A stretch of DNA of 64,000 nucleotides, from the NCBI GenBank assembly GCA_052035095.1, contig JBPOHW010000001.1:44857-108856 (forward strand), written 5' to 3'. The first letter of the stretch is position 1; each line of letters opens with the position of its first letter. Made by a program: the position numbers and the translations under genes. The DNA comes from Candidatus Moraniibacteriota bacterium. GTDB taxonomy: Bacteria > Patescibacteriota > Minisyncoccia > Moranbacterales > UBA1568. Below are positions 7,052 to 64,000 of the stretch, in pieces. The notes beneath the pieces were generated by a model. The model made no database searches, was not told the origin of the DNA, and saw only the letters and a program-made list of their open reading frames with translations.

Positions 7052-7188
7052 AAATTCCAAATTCAAAATTTCAAGTTCCAAATAAATCTCAAATCTCAAT
7101 TTTCGAAACAAAATCATTTTTTCAAGCGTCTCTTTTGAATATTTGTTATTTGGTGCTTATTTGGAACTTGAAATTTTGAATTTGGTGC
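7052..7188. repeat. family-1 palindromic element, copy 2
   Basis: attccaaattcaaaatttcaagttccaaataaatctcaaat ... gcttatttggaacttgaaattttgaatttggtgc. Confidence 0.75.
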
Positions 7189-7193
7189 TTTTC

Positions 7194-11755: not shown

Positions 11756-13048
11756 CTATCTCCCGATTCCTTTGTAGATTATTCCCGATTTTCGAAACAG
11801 GTTTTTGTCAAAGGCGTTTTTGCCGTCGATGAAAACTCGCACCTTGTGTTTTTTGAGCAGGGCGGGGGTAATGGTGTCTTTGAACTCTCGGTGATCGGTC
11901 GCGAGGATAAGGGCGGTGGACTTCTTGAGAAGGGCATCGAGGGATTTCGCGCTTGATCGATCGAGAATATGCGGATCGTACACCTCAACCTTGGCGGAGT
12001 GTTTCTTGAGGTGTTCGATAATCCGGACGGAGGGCGATTCGCGCACATCGTCGATGTTTGCCTTGTAGGCGAGTCCCAAGACGCCGACGGTCGTGCCATT
12101 CATCGGAAGCTTCACCTGATTGAGCGCGTCTTGGAGGAGCTCTACGGTATAGTCCGGCATACCGTTATTGATTTCACGGGCGAGGCGCAGGAACTTGTGG
12201 TCGAAGCCGGCTTTTTTCGCGCGCTCTATCAAATAGTACGGATCGACAGGGATGCAGTGACCGCCCACGCCGCAGGAAGGGAAGTGTGCGAGGAAGGAGA
12301 AGGGTTTGGTCGCGGCGCCACGGATCACGTCTTTCACATCGATACCGAGCGCGTCAAACGAACGCGCAAGCTCGTTTACAAACGCGATATTGATATCGCG
12401 GAAGGAATTTTCAACCACCTTGACCGCCTCCGCCTCGCGGATGGATTTCATCGGGCGGATTTCGCCGTCGACAATGGAGCGGTAAAATGCGAGCGCGCGC
12501 CGGAGTCCGGTCGCGTCGAGGGCGCCGACGACACGGGGGATATTGGTGACGTTCCACACGTCGTCCCCGGGATTGATGCGTTCGGGGCAGTGGGCGAGGA
12601 AGACGTCTTTCCCGATTCTCTGACCCGCGCGTTCAAGAATAGGCACGACGACTTCTTCGGAAACGCCGGGATTGACGGTTGATTCGAGGACAACGAGCGC
12701 GCCTTTTTTGAGGTTGGCGGCGACGGTTTCCATCGCGCCGATAACCGGCGAAAGATCGGGAGCGTACACCTCATCAACCGGTGTCGGAACGCAGACGAGG
12801 ACGATGTCGGCCTTCTTGAGCGACTTCGGATCGGATGATGCGAGAACGGGGTGTTTCGGAAGATTTTCCTCGAGAAAGCGATCTTCAATGGGGCTTTTCC
12901 CTGTGTTGATGCATGCGTTTTTCTTTTCATCCAGATCAAATCCGAATACGTCATATCCGCGTTCTTTGGCACGAACGGCAAGCGGCAGTCCCACGTATCC
13001 CAAACCGACGATGCAGACCGTTTCTTTTTGAAGGGGAGTTTCTTTCAT
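11756..13048 (-). CDS. nucleotide-sugar dehydrogenase (UDP-glucose/GDP-mannose dehydrogenase family)
   Basis: N-terminal Rossmann motif CIVGLGYVGLPLA, catalytic-Cys region, 430 aa. Confidence 0.85.
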   Translation of the reverse strand: MKETPLQKETVCIVGLGYVGLPLAVRAKERGYDVFGFDLDEKKNACINTGKSPIEDRFLEENLPKHPVLASSDPKSLKKADIVLVCVPTPVDEVYAPDLSPVIGAMETVAANLKKGALVVLESTVNPGVSEEVVVPILERAGQRIGKDVFLAHCPERINPGDDVWNVTNIPRVVGALDATGLRRALAFYRSIVDGEIRPMKSIREAEAVKVVENSFRDINIAFVNELARSFDALGIDVKDVIRGAATKPFSFLAHFPSCGVGGHCIPVDPYYLIERAKKAGFDHKFLRLAREINNGMPDYTVELLQDALNQVKLPMNGTTVGVLGLAYKANIDDVRESPSVRIIEHLKKHSAKVEVYDPHILDRSSAKSLDALLKKSTALILATDHREFKDTITPALLKKHKVRVFIDGKNAFDKNLFRKSGIIYKGIGR

Positions 13049-42522: not shown

Positions 42523-42574
42523 AGAGAGACTTCAATGTTCAGCAACAGAGGAAAGGTGTATACAGGTATCGTTT

Positions 42575-42628
42575 TGAATATTGTTATTTGAGATTTATTT
42601 GGAGCTTGGAATTTGATATTTGGAACTT
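42575..42628. repeat. family-1 palindromic element, short copy 3
   Basis: ttgttatttgagatttatttggagcttggaatttgatatttggaacttcc, lying between the ABC ATPase and permease genes. Confidence 0.55.
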
Positions 42629-42633
42629 CCCAC

Positions 42634-45192: not shown

Positions 45193-45261
45193 ATAAGCTG
45201 ACACTCTGGGACGAAGTTGGAACGTATTTATTCGGGCTTCCTTACTGAAATTATCGCATAG
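45193..45261. repeat. repeat A (ataagctgacactctgggacgaagttggaacgtatttattcgggcttccttactgaaattatcgcatag)
   Basis: About 90% identical over 60 nt to repeat C at 47819-47884. Partial copy B at 47193-47231. Confidence 0.65.
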
Positions 45262-45446
45262 AATTAAGCTTTCGGCCAACCGCGAACTGTTGGTAGCTTT
45301 TCCATCCGCAGAAGGAAGGTTTCAACTCAATACGTACAAAATACATTCATAAAGCCATAAACGGTGAATTCTAGAATTTAATGCCCGCTGGACGCTCTAC
45401 TTTGATTGCTCTACAATAAAAGTTCACTTTTACCTTACATTTTCCT

Positions 45447-47192: not shown

Positions 47193-47231
47193 ATAAGCTG
47201 GGGCTGTGGGATAAAGTTGGAATATATTTGG
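47193..47231. repeat. repeat B (partial copy of A/C)
   Basis: ataagctggggctgtgggataaagttggaatatatttgg. Confidence 0.5.
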
Positions 47232-47355
47232 ATCGGTGTCCAACATTCATTGATTTGTTTGATTGTACGGTAAATTTTTGAAAAATAAAAACGACCTCTT
47301 GAGGCGGGTCGTAGTAGCGCTTGCGGATTGTAAGCGCAGCCTGTATGGAGAACAT

Positions 47356-47818: not shown

Positions 47819-47884
47819 TAGCTGGGGCTGTGGGACGAAGTTGGAATGTATTTATTCGGGCTTCCTGCTGAAATTATCGCATAG
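47819..47884. repeat. repeat C
   Basis: tagctggggctgtgggacgaagttggaatgtatttattcgggcttcctgctgaaattatcgcatag. Confidence 0.65.
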
Positions 47885-48114
47885 GCTTGAGTTTTTTGCT
47901 ATCCATGATGGATTGCTTGCTAGTAAAGAGAAAGTTTCGACCCATTTTGTACAGAAATGCCTCTACAAAGCCACAAATGTTAATGGTCATTGACAGAAAT
48001 ATGATGATATGCTATATTTCTCAGTCATGGCGCGTCTATACCTAGACTCAAATCCATGACCCTCCCCGCAGGGTTTTGCGGCAATAGCACATTCCAAATT
48101 TGGGAGATAGAAAC

Positions 48115-48792
48115 ATGAGTATCTACGTCTACGAACCCTCTTGCGGTGAAAACATTGGTGAAACCGCGAAGAGGATGGCCATCTATGCCGTTACTGGTAG
48201 GGAGACGGTGACGGCGATGTTCAACGACATTCAACTCACTGCAAATCCCGGCGACAATGCTGACACAATCGTGCAGTATTATAACGCCGAGTGCGAACGC
48301 CGTCACGAGGAGTATGTCAACTCTTCGGAGTACAAGGAGAAACAACAGCAAGCCGAAGAAGCACGGCATCTTCACGAACTCATGCTTGAAGGCGCTTTAG
48401 CAGCGGCTCCCGAAAAAATGACGCTTCGAGACGAAGAGGGCTGGAAGAAAACAGTTGAGACGAACACCGACGGCTACGGTAGCGGAGTCATCCGTTTTGC
48501 TGAACGTTGGGCGCGTCTCATGGAGAGTCGTATCTCTAATGGCGACACCGTTGAAGGATGTGCCAAGGAAGCGTCCCATCTTGCCGATAATGAAGGCATC
48601 ACCGGCTTTATGTACGGGTGCGCCGTCTCTATCCTTTCGCAGGTGTGGGAATATGGTGAACAGCTTCGCCGTTGGCACAACCTCTCGACTCAACTCGGAA
48701 ACGAGGGCGAGAAAGCCAATGAAAATGGCAGTACGCTTAACCCAGCTCTCTTGTGCATTGGTCAATCTGATAACAACGACAGTGCGCAATAA
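48115..48792 (+). CDS. hypothetical protein (element cargo)
   Basis: ATG at 48115 with GGGAGA 7 nt upstream. 225 aa. Followed by a terminator hairpin. Confidence 0.5.
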   Translation: MSIYVYEPSCGENIGETAKRMAIYAVTGRETVTAMFNDIQLTANPGDNADTIVQYYNAECERRHEEYVNSSEYKEKQQQAEEARHLHELMLEGALAAAPEKMTLRDEEGWKKTVETNTDGYGSGVIRFAERWARLMESRISNGDTVEGCAKEASHLADNEGITGFMYGCAVSILSQVWEYGEQLRRWHNLSTQLGNEGEKANENGSTLNPALLCIGQSDNNDSAQ

Positions 48793-48823
48793 GTAACGCG
48801 GACTTCGTGAATCAGTGAATCAC

Positions 48824-48865
48824 GAGACTCCTTGCAGATAACAATTCTGCTTGGAGTCTTTTTCT
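48824..48865 (+). terminator. terminator hairpin
   Basis: gagactccttgcagataacaattctgcttggagtctttttct. Confidence 0.5.
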
Positions 48866-49147
48866 ATATCAATGTCCAGAATTTGACAAATGTCAATTTC
48901 TGATATAGCGTGTCCTTGGAAACTTAAAAACCGAATCCATTCCCTCGTCGCTATACTGTGCCAGCGACCTTCTATAAATTACACTACACACATTACACGT
49001 CTTTACCTATACACATTTTTTTTCAATAACATTCACAAAAACATTCAAAACATTACCAAGGGCACTTCAATCATTACATTTGGGAAAACCTTGTCCAGAT
49101 TGAAGCCTACGCAGTGTTTTTGAGTATTTTTGATACTAATCACCAGA

Positions 49148-49180
49148 AAACCGACTTCAATCTGAAGGTCGGTTTTTTTG
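49148..49180 (+). terminator. rho-independent terminator
   Basis: aaaaccgacttcaatctgaaggtcggttttttt. Confidence 0.6.
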
Positions 49181-49208
49181 TTTCCCGAAATTATTGAGTT
49201 TCGGGAAC

Positions 49209-49502
49209 ATGACACAGGTATTTAGCCAAACACTTCGAAACCAAATCAAAGCGTACTTTGAAAAACGCCACTCTTTAACAATTTCCGACAACAAAGCCGA
49301 CGAATATTTGCATTCATTGGATGGTTTGTGTTCGGCACTCGGTACCCGTTCTCCTGTGGCTTCCGGTGAAACAAGGTTTCCGAAGGAAACCTACAGGGGC
49401 ACCCGCATTTCCCGAGTGCGGGTCAAGGTGGAGGCGCCGAAGGCGCACGACCTTGACGCGCCAGCGAGGGAAATGCAAGCACCCGGTGTTCCTCTCTCTT
49501 AA
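49209..49502 (+). CDS. small hypothetical protein upstream of rep (possible regulator or RDF)
   Basis: MTQVFSQTLRNQIKAYFEKRHSLTISDNKADEYLHSLDGL... The C-terminal half is Arg-rich and doubtful. Confidence 0.3.
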   Translation: MTQVFSQTLRNQIKAYFEKRHSLTISDNKADEYLHSLDGLCSALGTRSPVASGETRFPKETYRGTRISRVRVKVEAPKAHDLDAPAREMQAPGVPLS

Positions 49503-49535
49503 CTTGATTCTAAACACACATCTACAGAATTTCGT

Positions 49536-50270
49536 ATGGTATTTTATTCTCGAAAACTCATTATCTCCGGCGAATATTTCGAGGTGTACGCGTACGAAAT
49601 AACCCAGAGGCGCGATTTCACGCGAAAAAAGAAACCGCTTCTGAAAAAAATGGACGACGATATCGAAGTGGGAGAAAAAGGAAAATTGGAAGTAGCCAAG
49701 CGCAAAGACTCCATTCATCGGACACGCACCGAAATACGGCGTCTCGTAAACAGCAATATGGACTTTTCAAAATTCTACACGCTGACCTTCAAAGAAAATA
49801 TCAAAGAAGTAAACATCGCCAACAAGCATTTCAACAAATTCATCATGCGCATGGAGTACCGCTATGGAAAATTCATCTACCTTGCCGTCATCGAGTTTCA
49901 AAAGCGAGGCGCGGTGCATTATCATTTTCTCTGCAATCTTCCGTATATCGTATCCAAGGAGATTGAGAAAATATGGGGGCACGGATTTATCAAAATACGA
50001 AGAATCAAACACGTTACGAATTTGGGCGCATACTTCTGCAAGTACCTGCACAAAGACATGACTGACAAGCGGTTGTTTCGTAAAAAGAAATACTTCTGTT
50101 CAGAGAATATCGAGAGACCGACGGAAGTGTATGACAAAGAAGTCATTGAAAAACTTCTCATGCAGTATGACCTGCACGACAGGAAACCTGACTACGAAAC
50201 AAGTTTTGTGAACGAGTACACGGGAAAAGTCGAGTATAAACAATTCAAAGTAAAAGGTATCGTTGCTTGA
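49536..50270 (+). CDS. rep: rolling-circle replication initiator, HUH endonuclease superfamily
   Basis: Motif 1 FYTLTF, motif 2 HYHFL (HUH), motif 3 YFCKYLHKD with catalytic Tyr. 244 aa. Confidence 0.65.
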   Translation: MVFYSRKLIISGEYFEVYAYEITQRRDFTRKKKPLLKKMDDDIEVGEKGKLEVAKRKDSIHRTRTEIRRLVNSNMDFSKFYTLTFKENIKEVNIANKHFNKFIMRMEYRYGKFIYLAVIEFQKRGAVHYHFLCNLPYIVSKEIEKIWGHGFIKIRRIKHVTNLGAYFCKYLHKDMTDKRLFRKKKYFCSENIERPTEVYDKEVIEKLLMQYDLHDRKPDYETSFVNEYTGKVEYKQFKVKGIVA

Positions 50271-50322
50271 TATTTTCTTTTTCTTTCGTTACGGTATGAA
50301 TACCGTGAACGCTATAAACACT

Positions 50323-51792
50323 ATGAAATACATCCTCTACGCCCGAAAGTCCACAGAACAGGAAGAACGCCAAGCGATGTCCATCGAGTCGCAGGAAAAC
50401 GAAATGGTGCGTCTCGCGGAAAAGTCGGGGATTCGCATTGAGAAAACCTACAAAGAAAGCATGTCGGCGAAACAAACAGGACGACCCATTTTCAATGAAA
50501 TGCTGGACTCTCTCGGAAAGAACAAAGACTGCGTTGTATTCGCATGGAAACCCGACCGTCTTTCACGAAACATCATTGACGGCGGAAAACTGGTCGAACT
50601 TCTTGAAAGAGGAAATATCAAAGAAATTCGGACGATTGATAAAGTCATCACCGACAACCCGACGGACAAGTTTATGCTTCTCCTTGACTTCGGCGTGGGC
50701 AAGAAATATTCCGACGACCTTTCCGTGAATGTGAAACGAGGCAATCGCGCCAAACTTGAAAAAGGAGGATGGCCGGGGATTGCCCCTCTCGGGTATCTCA
50801 ATGACAAACTCAACAAAACCATCGTCGTTGACGAAGAACGCGCGCTGTATATTAAAAAAGCATTCGAACTCTACGCTATGGGAGGAAAAAGCGTCATGGA
50901 GGTGGCGAATGTTCTCTATGAGAGAGGCTTCCGTTCGCGGACGGGTCAGAAAATACACAAAAGCAAAATTCACACGATACTCTCCGACCCGTTTTACTCC
51001 GGCATGATGAAACGGAACGACGTAGTGTACCAAGGAAAACATGAACCGATAGTCTCTCACGAACTTTTCGAGAAAGTCCAAGACGTACTCTTTCGGAGAA
51101 TACACACCAAAATGCAAACGCTGTTCTTTCCGCTTCGGGGATATATCAAGTGCGGAAGCTGTGGTTGCGCGTTTACCGCAAGCCGCAAAAAAGGACACGA
51201 TTATTACTACTGCACCAACGGCAAGGGACAGTGCGAGGAACACAAGCGGTATATGCGTTCCGAGAAGATGGAAACACTTATTTCAACCGTCTTTGATGAA
51301 ATATCTTTTGACGAAGAACTCATCGAACTTGCCTACCTCGCACAAAAGGAAAGAGGAAAACACGACGAGACCTACAAAGAAGCCTCGCGCGAGACCATCG
51401 TCAAGAAGCTAGAATTTGTCTCACGGAAGGAGTCGAGGCTTCTCGAGAGTTATCTGTCCGAACTCATTCCGCAAGACGTGTACGAGGCAAAAACGAAGGA
51501 ATTGCACAACGAAAAAGAAACCTTGAACGCGCAACTTCAAAAAAGCGACCAAATGTTTGGGAACGGACTCTGTACTTTGGAACATTTGAAAAACGTGTTT
51601 TTGACCGCTAATAGAACCAAAAGTGAATTTCTCAATGCGCCGAATGAGAAAAAAGCGAAGGTGCTGGAAACAGTACTTTGGAACCTTGAAATACGAAACG
51701 GAGAAATGGCTTCGGTACGCTACAAAATGCCGTATGAGATACTCAAAAAGTCGCCCAAAAACGGCGACTTTTCTACAATGCTGGGGTGCTAG
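50323..51792 (+). CDS. large serine recombinase (integrase)
   Basis: N-terminal resolvase domain YARKSTEQEERQAMSIESQ (catalytic Ser), a recombinase domain, and a zinc ribbon CGSCGC...YYYCTNG. The last four codons (MLGC-stop) overlap the 3' end of tRNA-Gln. Alternative start at 50296. Confidence 0.8.
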   Translation: MKYILYARKSTEQEERQAMSIESQENEMVRLAEKSGIRIEKTYKESMSAKQTGRPIFNEMLDSLGKNKDCVVFAWKPDRLSRNIIDGGKLVELLERGNIKEIRTIDKVITDNPTDKFMLLLDFGVGKKYSDDLSVNVKRGNRAKLEKGGWPGIAPLGYLNDKLNKTIVVDEERALYIKKAFELYAMGGKSVMEVANVLYERGFRSRTGQKIHKSKIHTILSDPFYSGMMKRNDVVYQGKHEPIVSHELFEKVQDVLFRRIHTKMQTLFFPLRGYIKCGSCGCAFTASRKKGHDYYYCTNGKGQCEEHKRYMRSEKMETLISTVFDEISFDEELIELAYLAQKERGKHDETYKEASRETIVKKLEFVSRKESRLLESYLSELIPQDVYEAKTKELHNEKETLNAQLQKSDQMFGNGLCTLEHLKNVFLTANRTKSEFLNAPNEKKAKVLETVLWNLEIRNGEMASVRYKMPYEILKKSPKNGDFSTMLGC

Positions 51793-51851
51793 GATTCGAA
51801 CCTAGGATCATGGGACCAGAACCCATTGCCTTACCGCTTGGCTACACCCCA
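51781..51851 (-). tRNA. tRNA-Gln (anticodon CUG)
   Basis: Reverse complement UGGGGUGUAGCCAAGCGGUAAGGCAAUGGGUUCUGGUCCCAUGAUCCUAGGUUCGAAUCCUAGCACCCCAG folds as a cloverleaf. Anticodon loop is UUCUGGU and the T-loop is GGUUCGAAUCC. Closely resembles bacterial tRNA-Gln. Confidence 0.8.
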
Positions 51852-52111
51852 ATAATCTCTAACTCTTCCAAGATATCACGTAATTGTTGCTTTAAGAATC
51901 GCTTCCCTTCAGTTGTCTTCAAATAACGTTCCCGCCTTTCGGCATCACTTTTCTTGAGATACGCTTCGTAATGAATAAGCTTCACTGGCAATCTCGTGCT
52001 CGTAAAATCAGCATTTCCCTCATGATGCTCTGCAATTCTTCTTTTCAAATCGCTTGTATAGCCAGTATAAAGTTGTTTGTTGTTGAGAAGAAGAATGTAT
52101 ACGTAGAACAT
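51842..52111 (-). CDS. GIY-YIG nuclease superfamily protein (small, about 90 aa)
   Basis: MFYVYILLLNNKQLYTGYTSDLKRRIAEHHEG is the GIY-YIG motif. The stop overlaps the tRNA 5' end by about 10 nt. Confidence 0.6.
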   Translation of the reverse strand: MFYVYILLLNNKQLYTGYTSDLKRRIAEHHEGNADFTSTRLPVKLIHYEAYLKKSDAERRERYLKTTEGKRFLKQQLRDILEELEIIGV

Positions 52112-52178
52112 ACAGAAAAATACAGCAAAGGAAGGATTCGCCATGTCATTCGACATGGCGCCCCGTCGGATGACGGGG

Positions 52179-52233
52179 CGAACCTAGGATCATGGGACCA
52201 GAACCCATTGCCTTACCGCTTGGCTACACCCCA
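52179..52233 (-). repeat. 55-nt duplicate of the 5' part (nt 1-55) of tRNA-Gln
   Basis: cgaacctaggatcatgggaccagaacccattgccttaccgcttggctacacccca is identical to 51797-51851. Confidence 0.75.
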
Positions 52234-52295
52234 AGAATATTTTAATTGCCTTACCCGCCTCGACTCGTTGAAGCTCATCTTCGGCGAGGCGGGCC

Positions 52296-52312
52296 ACTTG
52301 GCTACACCCCAA
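52296..52312 (-). repeat. third short copy of the tRNA-Gln 5' end plus flank
   Basis: cttggctacaccccaagaat, compared with 52218-52238. Confidence 0.5.
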
Positions 52313-52394
52313 GAATTTTTCAAAAGAAAAGGGAGGACGCGATGCCCTTCCCGGATAATAGCCAAAAATTGAGGAAAAATCAAGGTGATTCGCG

Positions 52395-53335: not shown

Positions 53336-53469
53336 AAGCACCAAATTCAAAATTCCAAGCTCCAAATAAATATCAACTCTCAATACTCAAAAACGTACAA
53401 AAAATGTTTCTGCTTGATATTTGTATTTTGATGCTTATTTGGAACTTGTGATTTGATTCTTGAAATTTT
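53336..53469. repeat. family-1 palindromic element, copy 4 (between ftsE and ftsX)
   Basis: aagcaccaaattcaaaattccaagctccaaataaatatcaa ... gcttatttggaacttgtgatttgattcttgaaatttt. Confidence 0.7.
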
Positions 53470-54165: not shown

Positions 54166-54289
54166 AAAATTTCAAATTCAAAATTACAAGTTCCAAATAA
54201 GCACCAAATAACAAACAGGGATTCTTTAAGACGTTTTTAACATTGAGATTTTGAAATTTATTTGGAACTTGTCATTTTGAATTTGGTGC
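54166..54289. repeat. family-1 palindromic element, copy 5 (between prfB and ftsE)
   Basis: aaaatttcaaattcaaaattacaagttccaaataagcacc ... gaaatttatttggaacttgtcattttgaatttggtgc. Confidence 0.7.
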
Positions 54290-54302
54290 TTACACTTCCA
54301 CA

Positions 54303-56094: not shown

Positions 56095-56156
56095 CCCTCA
56101 TCAGAGTCTTTTCCTCTCATCAGAGTCTCTCGAAGAGGACTCTGATGAGGGAAAGG
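56095..56156. repeat. family-2 hairpin element, copy 1 (12-bp stem ctcatcagagtc / gactctgatgag)
   Basis: ccctcatcagagtcttttcctctcatcagagtctctcgaagaggactctgatgagggaaagg. Other copies at 57654 and 60789. Confidence 0.65.
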
Positions 56157-56700
56157 TTTCACCTCCTATTGTCTCCGTCAACTTCTCAAGAAGATCTTCG
56201 CGCGCAAGACAAATGGGGACGGGAAATAAAATAATCTTTTCCTCCTCCTCTTTTTTTGTATAAAAATGTCCGAGTTTTTCAAAACTTCGAAGCGTATCTC
56301 CTTTTTGCGCCGGGACAATATGCCAGTGGAGATGCTCAACACTCTGCTCAGAACCCGCTCCAAACTGGAGGAATATCTCAAAACCACACCCCGGGTAAAC
56401 TTTTTCGAGTTGCTTCATGGCAAACAGTCCGAGAGTGTGTCGGGAGACAAGTTCGTCACGCGTTTCTTCTTCCGGATGTTTGAGGTGTCGCTTGGGAACC
56501 AGCATCGTGTGCCCTTCAAATTTCGGAAAAAAATTCACTATCCAAAAATAATGCTCGTTTTCCATCAATGTTCCCGAGACATTTCGAACGCCTTGTTTCT
56601 TAATGTTCTCTTCGGAACAAAAAGGGCATTCTTTTTTCCCTTCTATCTTTTTCTTATCTCCGCTGTACGAATTCCGAAATGGACTAAAATAATATGCCAT
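56101..56700 (-). CDS. HIT-family hydrolase
   Basis: Histidine triad HLHWHIVP. The C-terminal tail is encoded by the family-2 hairpin repeat. Confidence 0.65.
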   Translation of the reverse strand: MAYYFSPFRNSYSGDKKKIEGKKECPFCSEENIKKQGVRNVSGTLMENEHYFWIVNFFPKFEGHTMLVPKRHLKHPEEETRDELVSRHTLGLFAMKQLEKVYPGCGFEIFLQFGAGSEQSVEHLHWHIVPAQKGDTLRSFEKLGHFYTKKEEEEKIILFPVPICLAREDLLEKLTETIGGETFPSSESSSRDSDERKRL

Positions 56701-56786
56701 AAAAGAAATGAAAGAAATTATCCCCCGTCAAAATTTCCGAAGAGGCTTTGACAGAGCCGTCTGTTCCGGTTTCGGTTGGAATGAGT

Positions 56787-56978
56787 TCATACTTCAAAAA
56801 CTTCTTTTTTTACTTTTTCGATTTCTTCCTTCTTCTCAAGCAAAACGCTTTTGTGAAGTTTATAAAGAAGCGGGATCACACCGCACACTTCGCATTCGCC
56901 CCAATTACACTTCCCGCCGTTTTCTCGCGAGAGTCTTCGGCACATGTTTATTTCACGATCAAAGATTTCTTGGTTCAT
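56787..56978 (-). CDS. small Cys-rich protein (hypothetical)
   Basis: 63 aa with C...C-x5-C-x2-C. Start overlaps the HAD gene stop. Confidence 0.35.
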   Translation of the reverse strand: MNQEIFDREINMCRRLSRENGGKCNWGECEVCGVIPLLYKLHKSVLLEKKEEIEKVKKEVFEV

Positions 56979-56980
56979 AT

Positions 56981-57640
56981 TTACCTTATCAGAGAATACA
57001 TTTCCTTAAAGGAGGAAACGACAAAATCCGCACCTTTTTCAAGAAGAGCTTTCTTCGGAAAAGACGTAGTGATGCCGATCACCTGACAACCCGCAGCTTT
57101 GGCAGAGAGTATACCATTACCAGAGTCTTCTACCACAAATGTAGTTTCGGGATTAACACCAAGCTTACTCAACGTGAGAAGATACGGCTCGGGATGCGGC
57201 TTCCCGTTAACTACCTCGTCACCCGTCGTTATTTCATCAAAATAGTGATACAAATTGAACTTGTCAAAGACAAACTGTTGAATCATTCGACTACTCGAAG
57301 TAGTGAGCGCTATCCTGGAAATCTTCTTCCTTGTATGCGCGACAAACGCTTCCGAACCAGGAACAAGCAGGAGTCTCTCGCGAGAAATTTCCATATATCG
57401 CTTTCGCTTCTGATCAACGAGATCGGAGACAGACAACGATCCGTCTGTGAACGTATGCACAATATGAGCAAACGTATCACGATTCGGTTTCCCTTTAAAT
57501 CCAGCCCATTCCGTTTCCGGAACGGAAATTCCATGCATAGCGCACACCCAACGATCTGCTTCCAGTCCAAGTGGTTCAGAATCGGTAATCACCCCATCCA
57601 TATCGAAAATGATCGCTTCGATATTTCTGATTTTTTTCAT
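56981..57640 (-). CDS. HAD-superfamily hydrolase (beta-phosphoglucomutase-like)
   Basis: Motif I IFDMDGVITDSE, motif III GKPHPEPY, motif IV VEDSGNG. Confidence 0.8.
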   Translation of the reverse strand: MKKIRNIEAIIFDMDGVITDSEPLGLEADRWVCAMHGISVPETEWAGFKGKPNRDTFAHIVHTFTDGSLSVSDLVDQKRKRYMEISRERLLLVPGSEAFVAHTRKKISRIALTTSSSRMIQQFVFDKFNLYHYFDEITTGDEVVNGKPHPEPYLLTLSKLGVNPETTFVVEDSGNGILSAKAAGCQVIGITTSFPKKALLEKGADFVVSSFKEMYSLIR

Positions 57641-57653
57641 AAAGCTCTATTTT

Positions 57654-57698
57654 CTCCTCGTCAGAGTCTCTCGCAGAGGACTCTGACGAGGAAAGGAG
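57654..57698. repeat. family-2 hairpin element, copy 2
   Basis: ctcctcgtcagagtctctcgcagaggactctgacgaggaaaggag. Confidence 0.6.
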
Positions 57699-57705
57699 AA
57701 GCGTA

Positions 57706-58023
57706 TCATACCTCCAAAATGATACGTTTTTTAAATGCGCCGCGTTCCTCTACTTTTTTTTCTTTGATTTTTTCTATCTCTGTTCCACTGAATCCCTTAT
57801 ATTCAACAATTGCCTCAAGCACTTCCAAAATATCAGCAAGTTCTTCTCTGTTTTCATCTTTCTTGAATTCTTCAACCTCTTCCAATAACTTTTCTTTTAG
57901 CTTTTGCCAGTATTCCGCATCGTCTGCCGTATGTACCATTGGAGCCCTACCCTCCCCTTCAATTATTTCAGGAATTTTATCTCGTACTAGCTTACTCTTT
58001 TTCATTTTCATCTTGTTTTCCAT
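57706..58023 (-). CDS. MazG-like nucleotide pyrophosphohydrolase family small protein
   Basis: KLVRDKIPEII ... EELADILEVLEAI ... ERGAF pattern. Confidence 0.55.
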   Translation of the reverse strand: MENKMKMKKSKLVRDKIPEIIEGEGRAPMVHTADDAEYWQKLKEKLLEEVEEFKKDENREELADILEVLEAIVEYKGFSGTEIEKIKEKKVEERGAFKKRIILEV

Positions 58024-58032
58024 ATTATTTTT

Positions 58033-60654
58033 CTATTTTCCACAACACTTCTTATACTTCTTCCCACTGCCACACGGGCAGGGGTCGTTGCGGCCCACTT
58101 TGGGGCCGGCGGACAGGGGTTTTTGTACGACGGATTTTTCTTTTTGGGAAGAGGCGAATGACGGGGACTCTTCGGCGCCGCGATACTCGGCATTCTGCGG
58201 AAGCGTCTCGGTCGGCGCGTTGGGGACGGCCACCATTTTGAAAATCGTCGTGAGATACGTCGTGCGGATACTCTCCAGAAGCACGACGAACATATTGAAC
58301 GCCTCGCGCTTGTACTCGACAAGCGGATCGCGCTGGCCATAGCCCCGCAGCCCTATTCCCTGCCGGAGATAGTCGATCTCGTCGAGATGGTTCATCCACA
58401 AACCGTCGAGCGTCCGCAAGAAAAGTGTCTTCTGCACGTATCCCCACGCGTCTTTTCCGAGCTCCGTTTCCTTTTTCCCATACGCCACCTTCGCCTCTCC
58501 GAGCAATTCATCGAGTGAGGTGGAAATTTTCTCGGGTTGTTCTTTCGAAGCGTCGCGAAGAATCATCTCAAGCCGATCGCGCGTTTTCTTTTCATCGATC
58601 GGAAAGATGTTTTTGGCGTCATTGAGAATCGCCTCCATATCCCACTCGCCTCTTTCGGAAACGGCGTGCGCCGAAAGGGTTTTCTCCAACTCTTCGCCAA
58701 GGAGTCGCAGAGTTTCGTTCTTCATATCGGTCGTCCCGAGAATGGCGCGACGACGGCGGTAGACCACCTCGCGTTGTTTGTTCATCACATCGTCGTATTC
58801 CAAGACATGCTTCCGGATATCAAAATTGAAGCCCTCGATTTTTGTCTGCGCGCTCTCAATCGTCCGTGAAATAAGACCGTTCTGAATCGGTTCGTCTTCC
58901 GGGAGTCGGAGCGTCGTCATCATATTTTTCAGCTTGTCACCGCCAAATCGCCGCATCAGTTCATCTTCGAGCGACACGTAGAACTGCGACATGCCGGGAT
59001 CGCCCTGGCGCCCCGCGCGCCCGCGGAGCTGATTGTCGATGCGCCGCGCCTCGTGGCGTTCGGTGCCGATAATAGAGAGTCCGCCCACCTCGCGCACACC
59101 GGGACCAAGCTTGATGTCTGTGCCGCGCCCTGCCATATTGGTCGCGATCGTGACCGATCCGAGTTGCCCCGCGCGCGCTACGATTGCCGCTTCGCGCTCG
59201 TGATTCTTCGCGTTCAAGACTTCGTGAGGCACGCCCTCGCGCGTCAAAAGCGCGCTCAAATATTCCGATTTCTCAATCGCGATCGTCCCGACCAAAGCGG
59301 GCTGTCCTTTCTCGCGAAGACTCTTGAGTTTTTGTGCGATCGCGCGAAATTTTTCTTCTTCGGTTTTGTAAATGATGTCCGGGAAATCCTTTCGGATCAT
59401 TTTTTTGTTGGTTGGAATTTCAATCGAATCGATTTCATACACCTTGCGAAATTCCTCGGCGGAAGTCATCGCCGTTCCCGTCATACCGGCGAGTTTTTTG
59501 TAGAGACGGAAGTAATTTTGAAACGTGATCGTCGCGAGCGTGCGCGATTCTTTCTGGACGGCGACACTCTCTTTCGCCTCGATCGCTTGATGGAGTCCGT
59601 CACTGTAGCGGCGCCCGATCATGAGACGCCCCGTGAAATCATCAACGATAATGACTTCGCCGTCTTTCACGACATAGTCTCGATCGCGTTTGAAGATCAC
59701 TTCCGCTTTGAGCGACTGCTCCAAGTGATGCACGTACTGCACGCGTCCGGATTCGTAGATATTGCCAATGCCGAGCGACTGTTCCACTTTGGCAATGCCC
59801 GCTTCGGTGATGGACACCGACTTCATTTTTTCGTCCACCGTGTAGTCTTCTCCCACCTTGAGACGAGGGACGATGTGCGCGAATTGTTGATACAGCTTGG
59901 TCGATTCGATGTCCGGCGCCGAAATAATAAGCGGCGTCCGCGCTTCGTCGATCAGTATCGAGTCCACCTCATCCACGATCGCGTAGAACAAGTCGCGCTG
60001 AACCATCTGCTCGGCCGTTTGCACCATATTGTCGCGGAGGTAGTCGAAGCCGAATTCGTTGTTGGTCCCATACGTAATGTCCGCCGTGTACGCTTCACGG
60101 CGAGAAATCGGAATGAGATTCTCGGGCTCGACACTTACTTCGTTCCGATCGATCACGGACGGCGTGTACCGATAGGAAATCCCTTGTTGCAAAATGCACG
60201 CCGTCGTGAGACCGAGCGCGTGATACACCGATCCCATCCAATTGGCATCGCGTTTCGCGAGGTAATCATTCACCGTCACGACGTGGACACCCTTCCCCGC
60301 AAGCGCGTTCAAATAGATCGCCAAGGTCGAGGTAAGCGTCTTCCCTTCCCCCGTTTTCATTTCGGCGATTTTCCCTTGGTGAAGTACGATCCCGCCCATC
60401 ACCTGCACATCGTAGTGTCGCTCGCCGATAACACGCTTCGCCGCTTCCCGCACCACGGCAAACGCTTCCGGCAACAGTTTATCGAGCGAAGCGCCCTTCG
60501 CAATCCGCGCGCGAAACTCGTCCGTTTTCCCTCGAAGCGCCTCATCCGAAAGCGCCTGAATCTTGGACTCAAAGGCATTCACGTTCTCGACGATCGGCTT
60601 CAGTTTCGCGATCACCCGCTCATTCGACCCGAAAATTTTGGCAAAGAGTCCCAT
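58033..60654 (-). CDS. secA: preprotein translocase ATPase SecA
   Basis: MGLFAKIFG start, DEAD-like motor motifs, and the C-terminal zinc finger CPCGSGKKYKKCCG. The ORF extends to 60669. Confidence 0.9.
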   Translation of the reverse strand: MGLFAKIFGSNERVIAKLKPIVENVNAFESKIQALSDEALRGKTDEFRARIAKGASLDKLLPEAFAVVREAAKRVIGERHYDVQVMGGIVLHQGKIAEMKTGEGKTLTSTLAIYLNALAGKGVHVVTVNDYLAKRDANWMGSVYHALGLTTACILQQGISYRYTPSVIDRNEVSVEPENLIPISRREAYTADITYGTNNEFGFDYLRDNMVQTAEQMVQRDLFYAIVDEVDSILIDEARTPLIISAPDIESTKLYQQFAHIVPRLKVGEDYTVDEKMKSVSITEAGIAKVEQSLGIGNIYESGRVQYVHHLEQSLKAEVIFKRDRDYVVKDGEVIIVDDFTGRLMIGRRYSDGLHQAIEAKESVAVQKESRTLATITFQNYFRLYKKLAGMTGTAMTSAEEFRKVYEIDSIEIPTNKKMIRKDFPDIIYKTEEEKFRAIAQKLKSLREKGQPALVGTIAIEKSEYLSALLTREGVPHEVLNAKNHEREAAIVARAGQLGSVTIATNMAGRGTDIKLGPGVREVGGLSIIGTERHEARRIDNQLRGRAGRQGDPGMSQFYVSLEDELMRRFGGDKLKNMMTTLRLPEDEPIQNGLISRTIESAQTKIEGFNFDIRKHVLEYDDVMNKQREVVYRRRRAILGTTDMKNETLRLLGEELEKTLSAHAVSERGEWDMEAILNDAKNIFPIDEKKTRDRLEMILRDASKEQPEKISTSLDELLGEAKVAYGKKETELGKDAWGYVQKTLFLRTLDGLWMNHLDEIDYLRQGIGLRGYGQRDPLVEYKREAFNMFVVLLESIRTTYLTTIFKMVAVPNAPTETLPQNAEYRGAEESPSFASSQKEKSVVQKPLSAGPKVGRNDPCPCGSGKKYKKCCGK

Positions 60655-60716
60655 AAAAATAGTGTGCACAAAAACAAGAAAAGCCCCTGTATTCTAGGGG
60701 GAATCGCCGTCGAAGT

Positions 60717-60784
60717 CAAAAAACATACCATATAGCAGACGACCGTTACAGGATGGTATGTTTTTTTGATAAGGGAAAATCTCA
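60717..60784. repeat. family-3 element, copy 1 (hairpin acatacca...tggtatgt with flanking A and T runs)
   Basis: aaaaaacataccatatagcagacgaccgttacaggatggtatgtttttttgataagggaaaatctc. Confidence 0.7.
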
Positions 60785-60788
60785 TCTC

Positions 60789-60882
60789 ACCCCCGTCAGA
60801 GTATCTCGAAGAGGACTCTGGCGATTGAAGGCGAACATCCTCCAATTTCCATCAGACTCCCTACGGAGACTCCGACGAGAAA
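60789..60882. repeat. family-2 hairpin element, copy 3 (degenerate, duplicated)
   Basis: cccccgtcagagtatctcgaagaggactctggcgattgaagg ... catcagactccctacggagactccgacgag. Confidence 0.5.
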
Positions 60883-61233
60883 GAATTTCTCCCAGAGAAA
60901 AAACTGGAAACAACCGCATCAAAGGTCACCAGAAAAAATTATCATATTCCCACTTTCTGAAGCTATTTTTTTGAACGACCCATCGCCTAAAAGGCGAAGG
61001 AATCCAGTCAGGACTGAAGTCCGTGAGTCTTCCAAGTAACAATAAAATATATAGCGCTTCCTTTTGTGCAATTTTCAGATTTTTTCATACAGATATTTTC
61101 ATGTTTATTTCTCCAAGTTTGTCTTCAGGGTACGGGATCCTTGCTGAAGCCTTCGCCTGAAGGCGAGGGGATTAGATCCCCGAGAGAGACTCTAAACTTG
61201 TGCAAATTTGCACGCGCAAAGTCACGGCATGAT

Positions 61234-63018
61234 TCAATTTTTGAGGTTAACTGTAAAAACTTTATCTGGTATTGGTTCAATAACGTCTGAACTATTACCC
61301 ATATCCTGTCTGAGAGTAAAGATTATATATTTTTTATCCCTGACATACTCGCAATCAAAATTATTATATTGATCAGATCCTCTTTGGTCAGAAACATCAA
61401 AAACTTTTTTGCCGTCCGGTAAAGAAAAGACGACCCCCGTTCCATCACCCATGCCCGGAGACATGCAGCCATACACATGCGTATCTCCTTCGGTAAAGCC
61501 AAAATTTTCCATACCACCCATATTTGCCACTTGTCTCTTTTTTATTACATCATAGATGAATACCCCCGACCACTCCCAGCCACCGGCAACATATTTCAGA
61601 TACCTCCCACCTGGAGAGAACTCGGGGTTATGGAATATTTTTACTTGACCTATGTCTTGTTTCTCGAAATCGTTCCCTGCTTTATCAATAATAATCTCAC
61701 TTCCATTTTCAGTGAGAACCATATAATTCTGATCGCCAATACTTTTCACAAAAGCCGTGTATGGTCCAGAAGATACAATTTCACTGGTTATCTCTTCTGA
61801 TGAGAGGGTTTTTAGTTGACCATTAGCTACTTGCATTTTCACATGATAAATAGTGGCCACATTGTTATGTTCTTGATAATCGACATAAAATTCGTAACTA
61901 TTACCGCCTATTTTTTTAAAATCGCGCGGATTCGCTTTCAACGCGTCTTCGTACCATTCCCGGTATTTGGTAAAATCAGCCGGCTTTTGGGAATGCATGG
62001 CATAAGCCTGATCGAGTTGACCGCTCGCAATCAGCCAATAATATTTGCGAATAGTCGTAACACTGGAATCTTCCCCGGAAATCTGACTAAAAATCGGCTG
62101 TGTTAATGTTGCCGGTTTGAATACTTTAATTCCGCTCACAAAATTCTGAAATTCAACACGTTTCTGATTCAATTGCTCTCGTGTTTTGGATTGAATTATA
62201 TCTTTAGTTATTTTCGTCTTGCTTTCTGTAAAAAATTCATCGATATTTGAAAAATTTTCACGAACTAGACCCACGCGATCAAACTCCGCCGAAACAATAA
62301 CGTTATCAAAATACCCATTGATAAGCTTTTTGAAAGAAAGGAATCTAAGATCATACGTGTAAAGCCTGCCGATATTATCCCACTCAAAAAATTGATTTTC
62401 TTTTGTAAGAAGAGTTTTTACTCCGTTACTACAACTAGAATGAATAGTATTCAATAAATCAGGCGTCATCTCTGGATTATAGCGATAGCTATAATTGACA
62501 TTGTAATCGCATATGTTGCCAGTATTTCTCAAGTTCACAACATCGCTCGTCATACCCGATTCATAGTATACGCTTGGTTCATCAATGCCACGCCCGCTTT
62601 TCCCAGAATTCTGGTCATTAAAAATTCGTATGTTGATGTCTTCGTTGTTTTCGAATTTTAGGTCAACAGAATTGTTGTAATATACATTCAGTTTTTCAGC
62701 GTCTTCCTTAAGAGTGGAAAGGCGCGTTATATTTGTCATATATTCCGTAGAGGCTTTACCCCACGAAGAGGGGTAACAAAATTCGATACCAAACGCGTCT
62801 TGTCGATATTCCTTCCAATCTTTTTGACAATTGAGTTGGGAAGCAGATGTCTCAATGTTATCCATTGTTTCATTTATCGAGTTACGGCTTGACTGATTTC
62901 CCGGTAAACTGTTTCCTGATTCTTTATTCTGATCCCAAATCAACGTAAAAAAATAAACAAACACTCCGCCAAGAAGTATGGCGACCATCGCTATCAAAAA
63001 AATTCTTGTTTTTTGCAT
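61234..63018 (-). CDS. membrane-anchored large extracytoplasmic protein, AT-rich (hypothetical surface protein)
   Basis: N-terminal TM MQKTRIFLIAMVAILLGGVFVYFFTLIW, then about 560 aa rich in Asn, Tyr and Ser. Codon composition is much more AT-rich than the flanking genes. Confidence 0.55.
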   Translation of the reverse strand: MQKTRIFLIAMVAILLGGVFVYFFTLIWDQNKESGNSLPGNQSSRNSINETMDNIETSASQLNCQKDWKEYRQDAFGIEFCYPSSWGKASTEYMTNITRLSTLKEDAEKLNVYYNNSVDLKFENNEDINIRIFNDQNSGKSGRGIDEPSVYYESGMTSDVVNLRNTGNICDYNVNYSYRYNPEMTPDLLNTIHSSCSNGVKTLLTKENQFFEWDNIGRLYTYDLRFLSFKKLINGYFDNVIVSAEFDRVGLVRENFSNIDEFFTESKTKITKDIIQSKTREQLNQKRVEFQNFVSGIKVFKPATLTQPIFSQISGEDSSVTTIRKYYWLIASGQLDQAYAMHSQKPADFTKYREWYEDALKANPRDFKKIGGNSYEFYVDYQEHNNVATIYHVKMQVANGQLKTLSSEEITSEIVSSGPYTAFVKSIGDQNYMVLTENGSEIIIDKAGNDFEKQDIGQVKIFHNPEFSPGGRYLKYVAGGWEWSGVFIYDVIKKRQVANMGGMENFGFTEGDTHVYGCMSPGMGDGTGVVFSLPDGKKVFDVSDQRGSDQYNNFDCEYVRDKKYIIFTLRQDMGNSSDVIEPIPDKVFTVNLKN

Positions 63019-63110
63019 AGGTTTATTTTTCTTTTGCTATAAATTTTTCATTTTTATTTTCCCCTGCCTATGCGAACATTATACCAAACACGAAAAGAAA
63101 AGAAAGACAA

Positions 63111-63180
63111 GTAAAACATACCATATAGCAGACGACCGTTACAGGATGGTATGTTTTTTTTTGGGAAGAGAAAATCTCGT
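63111..63180. repeat. family-3 element, copy 2
   Basis: gtaaaacataccatatagcagacgaccgttacaggatggtatgtttttttttgggaagagaaaatctcg. Confidence 0.7.
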
Positions 63181-63234
63181 TAAAAGCATCCTCGCTCGAT
63201 TGCTCCTTCGGAGAAAATCTGTTAGAGTGCTCGC

Positions 63235-64000
63235 ATGAACAGGCTTTCATGGGGGACTTTTTCGGGGTGGCTCAGATCGAAAGACGCGTTTCACGCGGGC
63301 GTCGTTCTCGTGGTCATGCTCCTCAATATGGGCTTTGGGCTTCCGCGGATCGAACCGTATTCGGCTGTAGATGAGCCGTATTGGACGTTTGAACGGACGC
63401 CGGATTTTTGGCGAGCGGTAAGAGGACAAAAGTGGAAGAATACCGACATCAATGACAAGCCGGGCGTCACGGTGGCGGCGCTCTCCGGGTTCGGACTCCT
63501 CACGATCGACCCCATGCCCTACAAGCCCCTCCGCGAAGAACCGAAAACTCCCGAGCAACTCGAAGCGATAAACACGATCAATATCGCCTTCCGCCTTCCG
63601 ATCTTTCTCTCTGCCCTCCTTTCACTCCCCCTCTTCTACTTCCTCATACGGAAAGCGATCAATCGTTCCGTCGCGCTCATCGCCACTCTTTGTATCGGGC
63701 TCTCTCCCATTCTCCTCGGCATTTCCCTCATCATCAATCCCGACTCACTCCTCTGGATATTCCTCCCGCTCGCCATTCTCGCGCGCCTTGCCTATGGCAA
63801 GACGGCGCGCTCACACTACCTGGCGCTTGCCGGTGTTTTGACCGGACTCTCCCTCCTCACCAAATACGTCGCCAATATCCTCTTCGTATTCTTCTTCATC
63901 CTTCCTTTCCTTGAATACATTTTCACCGCGGAAAAGAAGCACGACATTCCCTCTTTTCTCAAACGCGCCCTGCGCGACCTCGCCATCCTCATTGCCCTCT
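63235..64000 (+). CDS. polytopic membrane protein, putative GT-C glycosyltransferase (PMT/ArnT-like); 3' end truncated by the window
   Basis: Open frame from ATG 63235 to the window end. MNRLSWGTFSGWLRSKDAFHAGVVLVVMLLNMGFGLPRIEPYSAVDEPYWTFERT... carries a DE-x-Y loop motif after TM1, then several TM segments. Confidence 0.5.
   Translation, partial: MNRLSWGTFSGWLRSKDAFHAGVVLVVMLLNMGFGLPRIEPYSAVDEPYWTFERTPDFWRAVRGQKWKNTDINDKPGVTVAALSGFGLLTIDPMPYKPLREEPKTPEQLEAINTINIAFRLPIFLSALLSLPLFYFLIRKAINRSVALIATLCIGLSPILLGISLIINPDSLLWIFLPLAILARLAYGKTARSHYLALAGVLTGLSLLTKYVANILFVFFFILPFLEYIFTAEKKHDIPSFLKRALRDLAILIAL

Follow-up and report, generated by a model that had tools for sequence, protein, structure and literature searches.

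Here we describe a locus in a 64-kb stretch (64,000 nucleotides (nt), hereafter the window) of contig JBPOHW010000001.1 from a Candidatus Moraniibacteriota bacterium, in which an AT-rich gene encoding a protein of 594 amino acids (aa) lies between secA and a divergently oriented glycosyltransferase gene, and in which two identical 48-nt hairpin-forming repeats are found, one on each side of this gene. Bacteria of the candidate phyla radiation (CPR, or Patescibacteria) have tiny genomes; contact with hosts and phages probably takes place through their envelope proteins, and how these proteins are gained and lost is little known. The locus is a clean natural example in which strains that are ~96–98% identical in DNA differ by one membrane-anchored protein. 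We conclude that it is a real, well-documented strain-specific islet carrying one horizontally mobile gene of a sizeable, unnamed CPR envelope-protein family. The following features were recognised; L014 is the closest strain, in which the gene is missing, and the other L numbers designate further genomes used for comparison.

58033..60654, minus strand: secA, a native flank that shares 95.9% of its nucleotides, and 99% of the protein sequence, with L014.
60691..60719, minus strand: secA promoter, TTGACT-17-TAGAAT, called by the −35/−10 scan; ancestral, and conserved in L042 (98%), L017 and L043.
60720..60767, no strand: hairpin repeat copy 1, 48 nt, abutting the secA −35 hexamer, 467 nt downstream of the stop codon of the 594-aa gene.
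60768..60783, no strand: diverged part of repeat unit 1 beyond the 48-nt core; in gene sense, GAGATTTTCCCTTATC.
60785..60829, no strand: D5-type long hairpin with a stem of ~18 bp; L042 has the orthologous hairpin upstream of its secA, so this one is native.
60830..61233, minus strand: non-coding 3′ region of the islet, ~400 nt, GC 0.43, with several small hairpins.
61234..63018, minus strand: 594-aa accessory gene, an open reading frame (ORF) for a transmembrane (TM) helix, a linker, an alpha/beta ectodomain, a probable NTF2-like domain and propeller blades.
63078..63086, minus strand: candidate extended −10 of the 594-aa gene, TGGTATAAT, read from the sequence and not called by the −35/−10 scan.
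63113..63160, no strand: hairpin repeat copy 2, 48 nt, in the intergenic spacer from which the 594-aa gene and PMT_2 diverge.
63161..63188, no strand: diverged part of repeat unit 2 beyond the 48-nt core; in gene sense, GAGATTTTCTCTTCCC with additional A/T.
63200..63228, plus strand: candidate PMT_2 promoter, TTGCTC-17-TAGAGT, proposed from the alignment with L014.
63235..64000, plus strand: glycosyltransferase gene PMT/PMT_2 (GT-C fold), 5′ portion; a native flank sharing 97.7% identity with L014.

A preliminary description of this DNA had proposed that the 594-aa gene is much more AT-rich than its neighbours, and the values bear this out: its GC content is 0.379, against 0.548 for secA, 0.552 for the glycosyltransferase fragment and 0.491 for the window. 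At third codon positions the GC content (GC3) is 0.358, compared with a mean of 0.558 (standard deviation, sd, 0.088) for 54 ORFs of the window. This places the gene 2.3 sd under the mean, with the second lowest value; the lowest belongs to an ORF in another strain-specific islet. Between the two repeats the gene is the sole convincing ORF, and no integrase or recombinase is encoded inside the unit. The short Cys-containing ORFs reported over the repeats do exist (60612–60845 and 63068–63250, both on the minus strand) and are read-throughs of the repeat. The segment at 60830–61233 matched no Rfam family and contains no credible ORF; small hairpins recur in it (CGCCTTCAGGCG, CGCCTTTTAGGCG, GGGGATCTAATCCCC), and it includes a D5-like variant at 60853–60874. 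An independent Logan unitig (SRR18853683, L006) matches window positions 60738–63142 with 1 mismatch in 2405 nt and stops 30 nt into each repeat, as expected for a k=31 graph at a 48-nt repeat.

SecA homologs placed the organism in Candidatus Moraniibacteriota, whereas exact-protein look-ups of the window SecA and of the protein P0036 retrieved no record. Relatives were graded by the identity of their SecA to that of the window (L014, L015 and L016, 99%; L042, 91%; L043, 90%; L017, 88%). In the first three, which are assemblies from different samples, the flanking DNA is 96–98% identical to the window and PMT_2 is divergent from secA at a distance of 111 nt, with neither the 594-aa gene nor the 48-nt hairpin in between. 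The gene was not found at the secA locus of L042, L043 or L017 either. Compared with L014, the window has three extra segments, namely 60648–63274, 56110–58045 (four small genes) and 47828–52178 (adjoining tRNA-Gln). The genes flanking secA differ in every relative (a DDE transposase gene upstream in L042, an LPG synthase gene in L043, a DUF4012 gene in L017), on both sides of it, and this neighbourhood is therefore a recombination hotspot rich in envelope-glycosylation genes.

A word-indexed search recovered homologs of the 594-aa gene in 35 clusters. Including that of the window, the family was observed in five unrelated housekeeping contexts:

Window: PMT_2 / secA.
L001: gene of a tRNA-synt_2 (AspRS/AsnRS-type) synthetase / SerRS.
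L004: dnaX / Na-H exchanger.
L044: tRNA-Gln / RluA.
L045: Glyoxalase / IMPDH.

In L001, whose genome has a GC content of ~0.52 (neighbouring genes, 0.49–0.55), the homolog, 76% identical, is a lone AT-rich gene with a GC content of 0.387; in the low-GC genomes L004, L044 and L045, in contrast, the GC content of the homolog is like that of its neighbours. Since the homologs are AT-rich outliers only in the higher-GC genomes, this distribution suggests a transfer of the family from low-GC into higher-GC lineages. The L004 and L044 homologs share 89% nucleotide identity from ~30 nt before the start codon to the stop codon, and their flanks are unrelated. A tblastn search against phage and plasmid sequences found no homolog, and an origin in a phage or plasmid was rejected on this ground. 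The gene is absent from the closest strain, its contexts are unrelated and it is an AT-rich outlier only in higher-GC hosts; for these reasons its horizontal acquisition, already suspected from its composition, is well supported by the sequence comparisons, and the gene is a horizontally mobile single-gene accessory unit. Neither a uniform composition nor a conserved presence in relatives, which would have spoken for a resident gene, was observed.

The AlphaFold2 model of the protein, based on the 35-sequence alignment (predicted local distance difference test (pLDDT) 86, predicted template modelling score (pTM) 0.73), comprises a TM helix at residues 2–32, a disordered linker (29–53), an alpha/beta ectodomain (~56–312), a helical/beta domain (~315–410) and a beta-rich C-terminus (~415–594). 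The N-terminal TM segment that had been proposed is thus present, but the richness in Asn, Tyr and Ser proposed with it is only moderate (8.1, 5.6 and 8.2%, respectively); Lys and Ile are also abundant. Six Cys residues are found, of which C170, C196 and C518 are invariant and C556 is nearly so, a pattern that fits an extracytoplasmic location. With the TM anchor, the six Cys and the globular ectodomain predicted by the model, it is reasonable to regard the product as a membrane-anchored surface protein, in agreement with the preliminary description. That description had also considered attachment to a host cell in the case of an episymbiont; the published evidence for episymbiosis of Moranbacteria is explicitly tentative (PMC10811913).

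Sequence searches with the 594-aa protein gave little: Pfam returned nothing at E ≤ 1 except PsbP_2, below its cutoff; NCBIfam and PADLOC had no match; PHROGs gave one non-significant match (E = 0.061), and a PDB sequence search nothing significant. MecA_N (PF05223, NTF2-like) matched three of the 35 family members, with a best E value of 1.8e-4, and did not match the window protein itself; residues ~315–410 are a probable NTF2-like domain. When the model was compared with the PDB using Foldseek, the C-terminal ~180 residues aligned with propeller blades of TolB, DPP-IV and prolyl oligopeptidases, with further matches to a trilobed protease and an oligogalacturonate lyase (E values from 6e-7 to 1e-4, probability ~1.0, partial coverage, TM-score over the query (TMq) ~0.2, identity 8–15%). 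A similar search of the viral library BFVD retrieved generic propellers only. In its C-terminal blades the protein thus resembles, by structural alignment, the TolB/DPP-IV/prolyl-oligopeptidase type of propeller, but it differs from TolB/PD40 propeller proteins in having neither a PD40/WD40 Pfam match nor a peptidase domain; no recognised relatives were found for its N-terminal two thirds. The predicted fold suggests a ligand- or partner-binding (or scaffolding) envelope protein rather than an enzyme. A profile search detected 929 representative clusters at E ≤ 1e-3, 188 of them at E ≤ 1e-30; about 90 of the 150 matches listed were about full length, and many shorter proteins consisted of the C-terminal module only. 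Its place beside secA, in a glycosylation/secretion neighbourhood, makes the gene a concrete candidate for strain-specific surface variation.

The hairpin repeat is an exact direct repeat (AAAACATACCATATAGCAGACGACCGTTACAGGATGGTATGTTTTTTT, 48/48 identical) whose copies are 2,393 nt apart. It had been described as an element of at least 50 bp starting at 60717 and 63111; a direct repeat containing a hairpin is indeed present, and its exact length is 48 nt, with starts at 60720 and 63113. The 44-mer quoted earlier matched at 60723 and 63116 with 0 mismatches, whereas 100 shuffled sequences gave 0 matches; even with up to 3 mismatches allowed, the window contains no further copy. A scan that required the stems to match exactly but left the loop free returned 7 matches in GTDB genomes (596 Gb) and 23 in JGI metagenomes, none of them a true copy, as all had unrelated loops or were members of a CATACACATACCATA tandem repeat. 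These scans returned no source contig, which the collections apparently do not contain, so the copy count covers the 64-kb window.

Each repeat consists of an A-run, a stem, a 21-nt loop, the second stem arm and a T-run (T9 in copy 2). The core arms are 9 bp long (ACATACCAT/ATGGTATGT), with 3 G-C pairs, and can be extended to 12–14 bp through the A and T runs. As RNA, the repeat folds on both strands (−15 to −18 kcal/mol, z = −3.5 to −4.8), and on the minus strand additional inner pairs make the loop shorter; the U-runs after the stem correspond to T7–T9 on the plus strand and to T4–T6 on the minus strand. When indels are allowed, the similarity between the copies covers 66 nt at 92%, and the whole diverged duplication amounts to roughly 75–80 nt, with the arrangement GAGATTTTCYCTT-N3-A7-9-hairpin-TTTT-(AC)-TTG(A/T)CT in gene sense. 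The core shows no differences in 48 positions, against ~20% divergence plus two indels in the flanks (P ~2e-5 at a uniform divergence of 20%), which indicates either that the hairpin is under selection or that the copies have been homogenised by gene conversion. No target-site duplication is evident at the repeats.

Both copies are located just upstream of a minus-strand promoter, that of secA and the candidate one of the 594-aa gene. The end of copy 1 is 23 nt upstream of the secA −10 hexamer, and copy 2 lies 26 nt upstream of the candidate TG-extended −10 and 29 nt upstream of its TATAAT; copy 2 is also upstream of the candidate PMT_2 promoter, whose position is conserved with TTGCCT-17-TAGCAT of the empty-site strain L014. 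Copy 1 fits exactly between the native D5 hairpin and the native secA −35, a place occupied in L042 by an unrelated 97-nt spacer, and the 48-nt element was not found upstream of secA in L042, L017 or L043, nor in L014–L016. The secA promoter region (60677–60724) is 98% identical to L042 and is conserved in L017/L018 and L043 too. This shared promoter sequence is therefore native, and the intergenic region of L014, which does not contain the conserved secA 5′ region, is derived. A forced alignment of the L014 intergenic region with the hairpin gave ~49% identity, which is unconvincing, and the idea that it contains a decayed hairpin was rejected.

The extended −10 motif TGGTATAAT is also present upstream of the homolog in L044, and in both L044 and L004 a terminator-type hairpin followed by an extended −10 precedes the gene. 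In L004, repeats with a hairpin and a T-run (AAAAGTCATC..GATGGCTTTTTT), unrelated in sequence to the window repeat, are found at 7216–7262 and 9300–9347, and a hairpin of this type also follows tRNA-Gln upstream of the homolog in L044. The promoter scan of 62950–63112 detected no plus-strand promoter, and a plus-strand small RNA ending at copy 2 was discarded for this reason.

On balance, we favour the reading that the 48-nt element is a terminator/insulator module that was duplicated, within a stretch of ~75–80 nt, by the rearrangement that installed the 594-aa gene. The gene would be a horizontally acquired, strain-specific and self-contained transcription unit placed in the divergent PMT_2/secA promoter region, and its family appears to be native to lower-GC relatives (GC ~0.35–0.43). 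It would have moved as a single gene, probably through DNA uptake and homologous or illegitimate recombination, with no recombinase of its own. The two repeats would be copies of one A-run/hairpin/T-run module built like the bidirectional intrinsic terminators of this genome, and would constitute the perfectly conserved core of a promoter-upstream sequence duplicated when the rearrangement placed the gene. From its position, copy 1 could end transcripts that run out of the islet before they reach the native secA promoter, and copy 2 may insulate the islet promoter from the divergent glycosyltransferase promoter or be a passenger of the duplication; selection or gene conversion would maintain the identity of the core.

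Like intrinsic terminators, the repeat has an A-run, an inverted repeat and a T-run that fold on both strands, a layout seen at other gene ends of the window (23588, 49147 and 57702). Several observations nevertheless weigh against this interpretation. Intrinsic terminators usually have a loop of 3–8 nt and a G+C-rich stem. The 21-nt loop of the repeat and its AT-rich stem, whose 9-bp core includes 3 G-C pairs, are atypical of efficient ones; the invariance of the loop is nothing that a terminator needs, and the terminator scan did not call the repeat. Among the four combinations of copy and strand, the minus strand of copy 1 is the only one preceded by a gene that it could terminate; copy 2 has no co-oriented gene upstream on either strand. 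It is for this reason that the duplication is better read as a footprint of the rearrangement; the earlier choice between terminators and recombination footprints remains a fair one. As borders of a cassette, the repeats are not clean: the segment that differs from the empty-site strain is 60648–63274, which includes the native secA promoter and the D5 hairpin, and, as judged from the comparison with L042, copy 1 is separated from the gene by native D5 sequence. The repeats therefore delimit no single foreign block. Finally, the history is not fully polarised; because the L014 intergenic region is itself derived, a loss in L014 rather than a gain in the window lineage is possible.

This last point is carried further by the proposal that the 594-aa gene is ancestral at the locus and was lost in the relatives, its AT-richness coming from amino-acid composition or expression and the repeats from an old local duplication. 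The derived state of the L014 intergenic region makes a deletion there plausible, and Asn, Lys, Ile and Tyr are abundant in the protein. However, GC3, on which amino-acid content has little influence, is also well below the window mean; no relative examined has the gene at this locus, and the family is found in five unrelated contexts, with a host-like GC content in low-GC genomes only. We consider this proposal improbable. An assembly artefact, in which the 2.4-kb unitig bounded by the 48-nt repeat was misthreaded and the true arrangement is a chromosome with a single hairpin plus a separate circle, is very improbable. At k=31 the islet is indeed a separate unitig broken inside both repeats, and the graph topology fits either arrangement; but the sequences flanking the two copies differ, each continuing into unique sequence, the assembly from which the contig was taken amounts to 175 kb, and the single-hairpin form was seen in no collection. 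Moreover, an identical 48-mer on two replicons would itself imply recombination between them.

A different proposal takes the 48-bp repeats for functional att-like recombination sites, by which the 2,393-bp unit (the gene and one hairpin) excises and integrates as a circle, by means of a recombinase supplied in trans or of a RecA-dependent crossover at the two identical copies; cassettes flanked by hairpins would, on this view, be a general route for accessory genes in these genomes. Identical direct repeats do flank the islet, their invariant loop suggests sequence-specific recognition, and the gene of a large serine recombinase lies at a distance of 9 kb, yet the attL and attR sites of serine recombinases are hybrids and not identical, and no recombinase is encoded in the unit. 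Direct hairpin repeats of a different sequence (47–50 nt, ~85% identity, E = 2e-9) flank the 62% homolog of L004, but none were found around the homologs of L001 or L045, and the scanned collections contained no further copies. No excised form was seen either, although the analysis could not test for one. In the neighbouring islet, the HAD-HIT block lies between two D5 hairpins (56121 and 57662; −34 kcal/mol); the breakpoint at the CYTH junction falls inside a hairpin, leaving a complete hairpin and an orphan arm orthologous to the single hairpin of L014, and all four D5-type hairpins of the window are confined to 56.1–60.9 kb, the variable region. Against this, the absence of a hairpin copy from the empty site of L014 and from the region upstream of secA in L042, L017 and L043 provides no evidence of a pre-existing target, and we regard att-like sites as unlikely. 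In a more general form, suggested by three instances (the 48-nt pair, the D5 pair at the HAD-HIT block and the L004 hairpin pair), hairpin-bracketed units would represent an undescribed mode of single-gene exchange in CPR bacteria, with terminator-type hairpins as recombination substrates. Such an exchange would be analogous in function to attC sites, without their sequence features or a linked integrase, and each insertion would leave a duplicated hairpin; we think it quite unlikely. The presence of hairpins at the junctions is compatible with recombination between short identical segments or through an unknown enzyme. If the hairpins were recombination substrates, they would reveal a cassette-exchange mechanism not described for these bacteria, and if they were terminators only, the islet would be an ordinary accessory one; either way, the locus offers a testable case of hairpin-associated rearrangement junctions.

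The placement of the copies relative to the two promoters could also be explained if the 48-bp element were a protein-binding regulatory site composed of 9-bp inverted half-sites 21 bp apart. In favour of this, the copies end 23 and 29 nt upstream of −10 hexamers, nearly the same promoter placement, all 48 nt including the loop are invariant between diverged flanks, and copy 2 has no gene to terminate. The element would then co-regulate secA with the membrane protein, which SecA would have to export. However, relatives of the window have secA with the same conserved promoter and without the element, half-sites are not usually spaced 21 bp apart, the vicinity contains no regulator gene and only two copies are known; in addition, flanking A and T runs are a hallmark of terminators. 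This role is improbable as well, and no palindromic sequence resembling an SOS box or another operator was seen by eye in the loop. Considering these alternatives together with the preferred duplication of a terminator/insulator module, the islet is a fairly ordinary accessory-gene islet in which the perfect conservation of the duplicated hairpin is mildly puzzling, and the chance that a new mechanism underlies the association with hairpins is modest but real.

We also compared the islet and its repeats with known kinds of element. Strain-specific genomic islets share with it a deviant GC content and GC3, presence or absence between strains of 96–98% nucleotide identity, varied locations and flanking direct repeats; here, in contrast, there is one gene, no integrase, no adjoining tRNA and an empty site without a copy of the repeat. 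Integron attC sites and clusters of attC sites lacking an integrase (CALINs) are similar in that a single gene is flanked by elements of the imperfect-palindrome type, and neighbouring accessory units also end in hairpins. They were rejected because the stem base has no R″/R′ core sites (RYYYAAC/GTTRRRY) and the stem is perfect, with no extrahelical bases; by inspection, GTTACAG and CTGTAAC within the loop violate the attC consensus. The own promoter of the 594-aa cassette and the existence of only two copies also counted against attC. No IntI turned up, although the window was not scanned exhaustively for tyrosine recombinases; the only recombinase among the ten strain-specific ORFs scanned is the large serine recombinase at 50296–51792. 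An attL/attR pair was rejected despite the 48/48 identity of the flanking repeats, as the empty site has no attB copy and the unit no internal integrase, and a site of the large serine recombinase was rejected because its attL and attR would be hybrid sites.

In the literature on integrative and conjugative elements (ICEs) of Streptococcus, elements flanked by attL and attR that lack an integrase are called cis-mobilizable elements (CIMEs). The islet is similar to these in having direct repeats around DNA that encodes no recombinase, and differs in that no related integrative element with the same att and no single-copy att are present and the repeat lies outside any tRNA or conserved gene. 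A miniature inverted-repeat transposable element (MITE) or another derivative of an insertion sequence (IS) was rejected, with two copies in 64 kb and no terminal inverted repeats (TIRs) or target-site duplications (TSDs). The same was done with repetitive extragenic palindromes (REP/REPIN) mobilised by a REP-associated tyrosine transposase (RAYT), given the two copies and the absence of an HUH motif from the six frames of the window (a fragment occurs in L014 only). Xer/dif sites (pdif) require an 11-6-11 bp architecture, which the arms of 9–14 bp separated by 21 bp do not have. A match to the Rfam family Phe_leader was below threshold (25 bits, against a gathering score of 55), was driven by the hairpin and the T-run, and was also rejected.

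The second AT-rich, strain-specific islet of the window (56110–58045) is located between secA and the CYTH gene and encodes a 105-aa ORF, a HAD hydrolase, a 63-aa ORF and a HIT-family protein. The 105-aa ORF is the one with the lowest GC3 of the window and gave weak Csm2-like PADLOC matches (E ~1e-3). In L014 a 234-nt spacer replaces this 1.9-kb islet; part of an HUH-type (IS200/RAYT-like) transposase (..HGFVIMPNHIHVFL..) is encoded there (L014 positions 12650–12800).

The 4.3-kb segment at 47828–52178 that is missing from L014 adjoins tRNA-Gln(ctg) at 51780–51851 and encodes the large serine recombinase (50296–51792), a Rep_ORF2/G2P replication protein (49536–50270) and, at 48115–48792, a homolog of Tad4, an inhibitor of type I Thoeris (E = 4e-33). 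Partial copies of the 3′ end of the tRNA-Gln gene are present at 52179–52238 and 52294–52323. By its gene content, this segment looks like a small integrative element with an anti-defence gene in a CPR genome. A repeat of ~100 nt with 70–89% identity occurs at 45196–45298 and 47820–47921, with a weaker copy at 47196–47242; the copy exactly at the 47828 edge of the tRNA-Gln-associated island may be part of the boundary of that element.

Two further repeat types were observed in the window. An AT-rich intergenic family of ~130 nt is found at 2344–2480, 7057–7193, 53341–53468 and 54172–54294, with a partial copy at 42571–42631; its halves are reverse complements (CCAAATTCAAAATTTCAAGTTCCAAATAAAT ... 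ATTTATTTGGAACTTGAAATTTTGAATTTGG) that form long palindromic hairpins, and it is present in L014 too. At 1856–1974, a G+C-rich hairpin motif (..CCCCTCCACGGGAGGGGAA) occurs in three tandem copies with a spacing of 39–44 nt.

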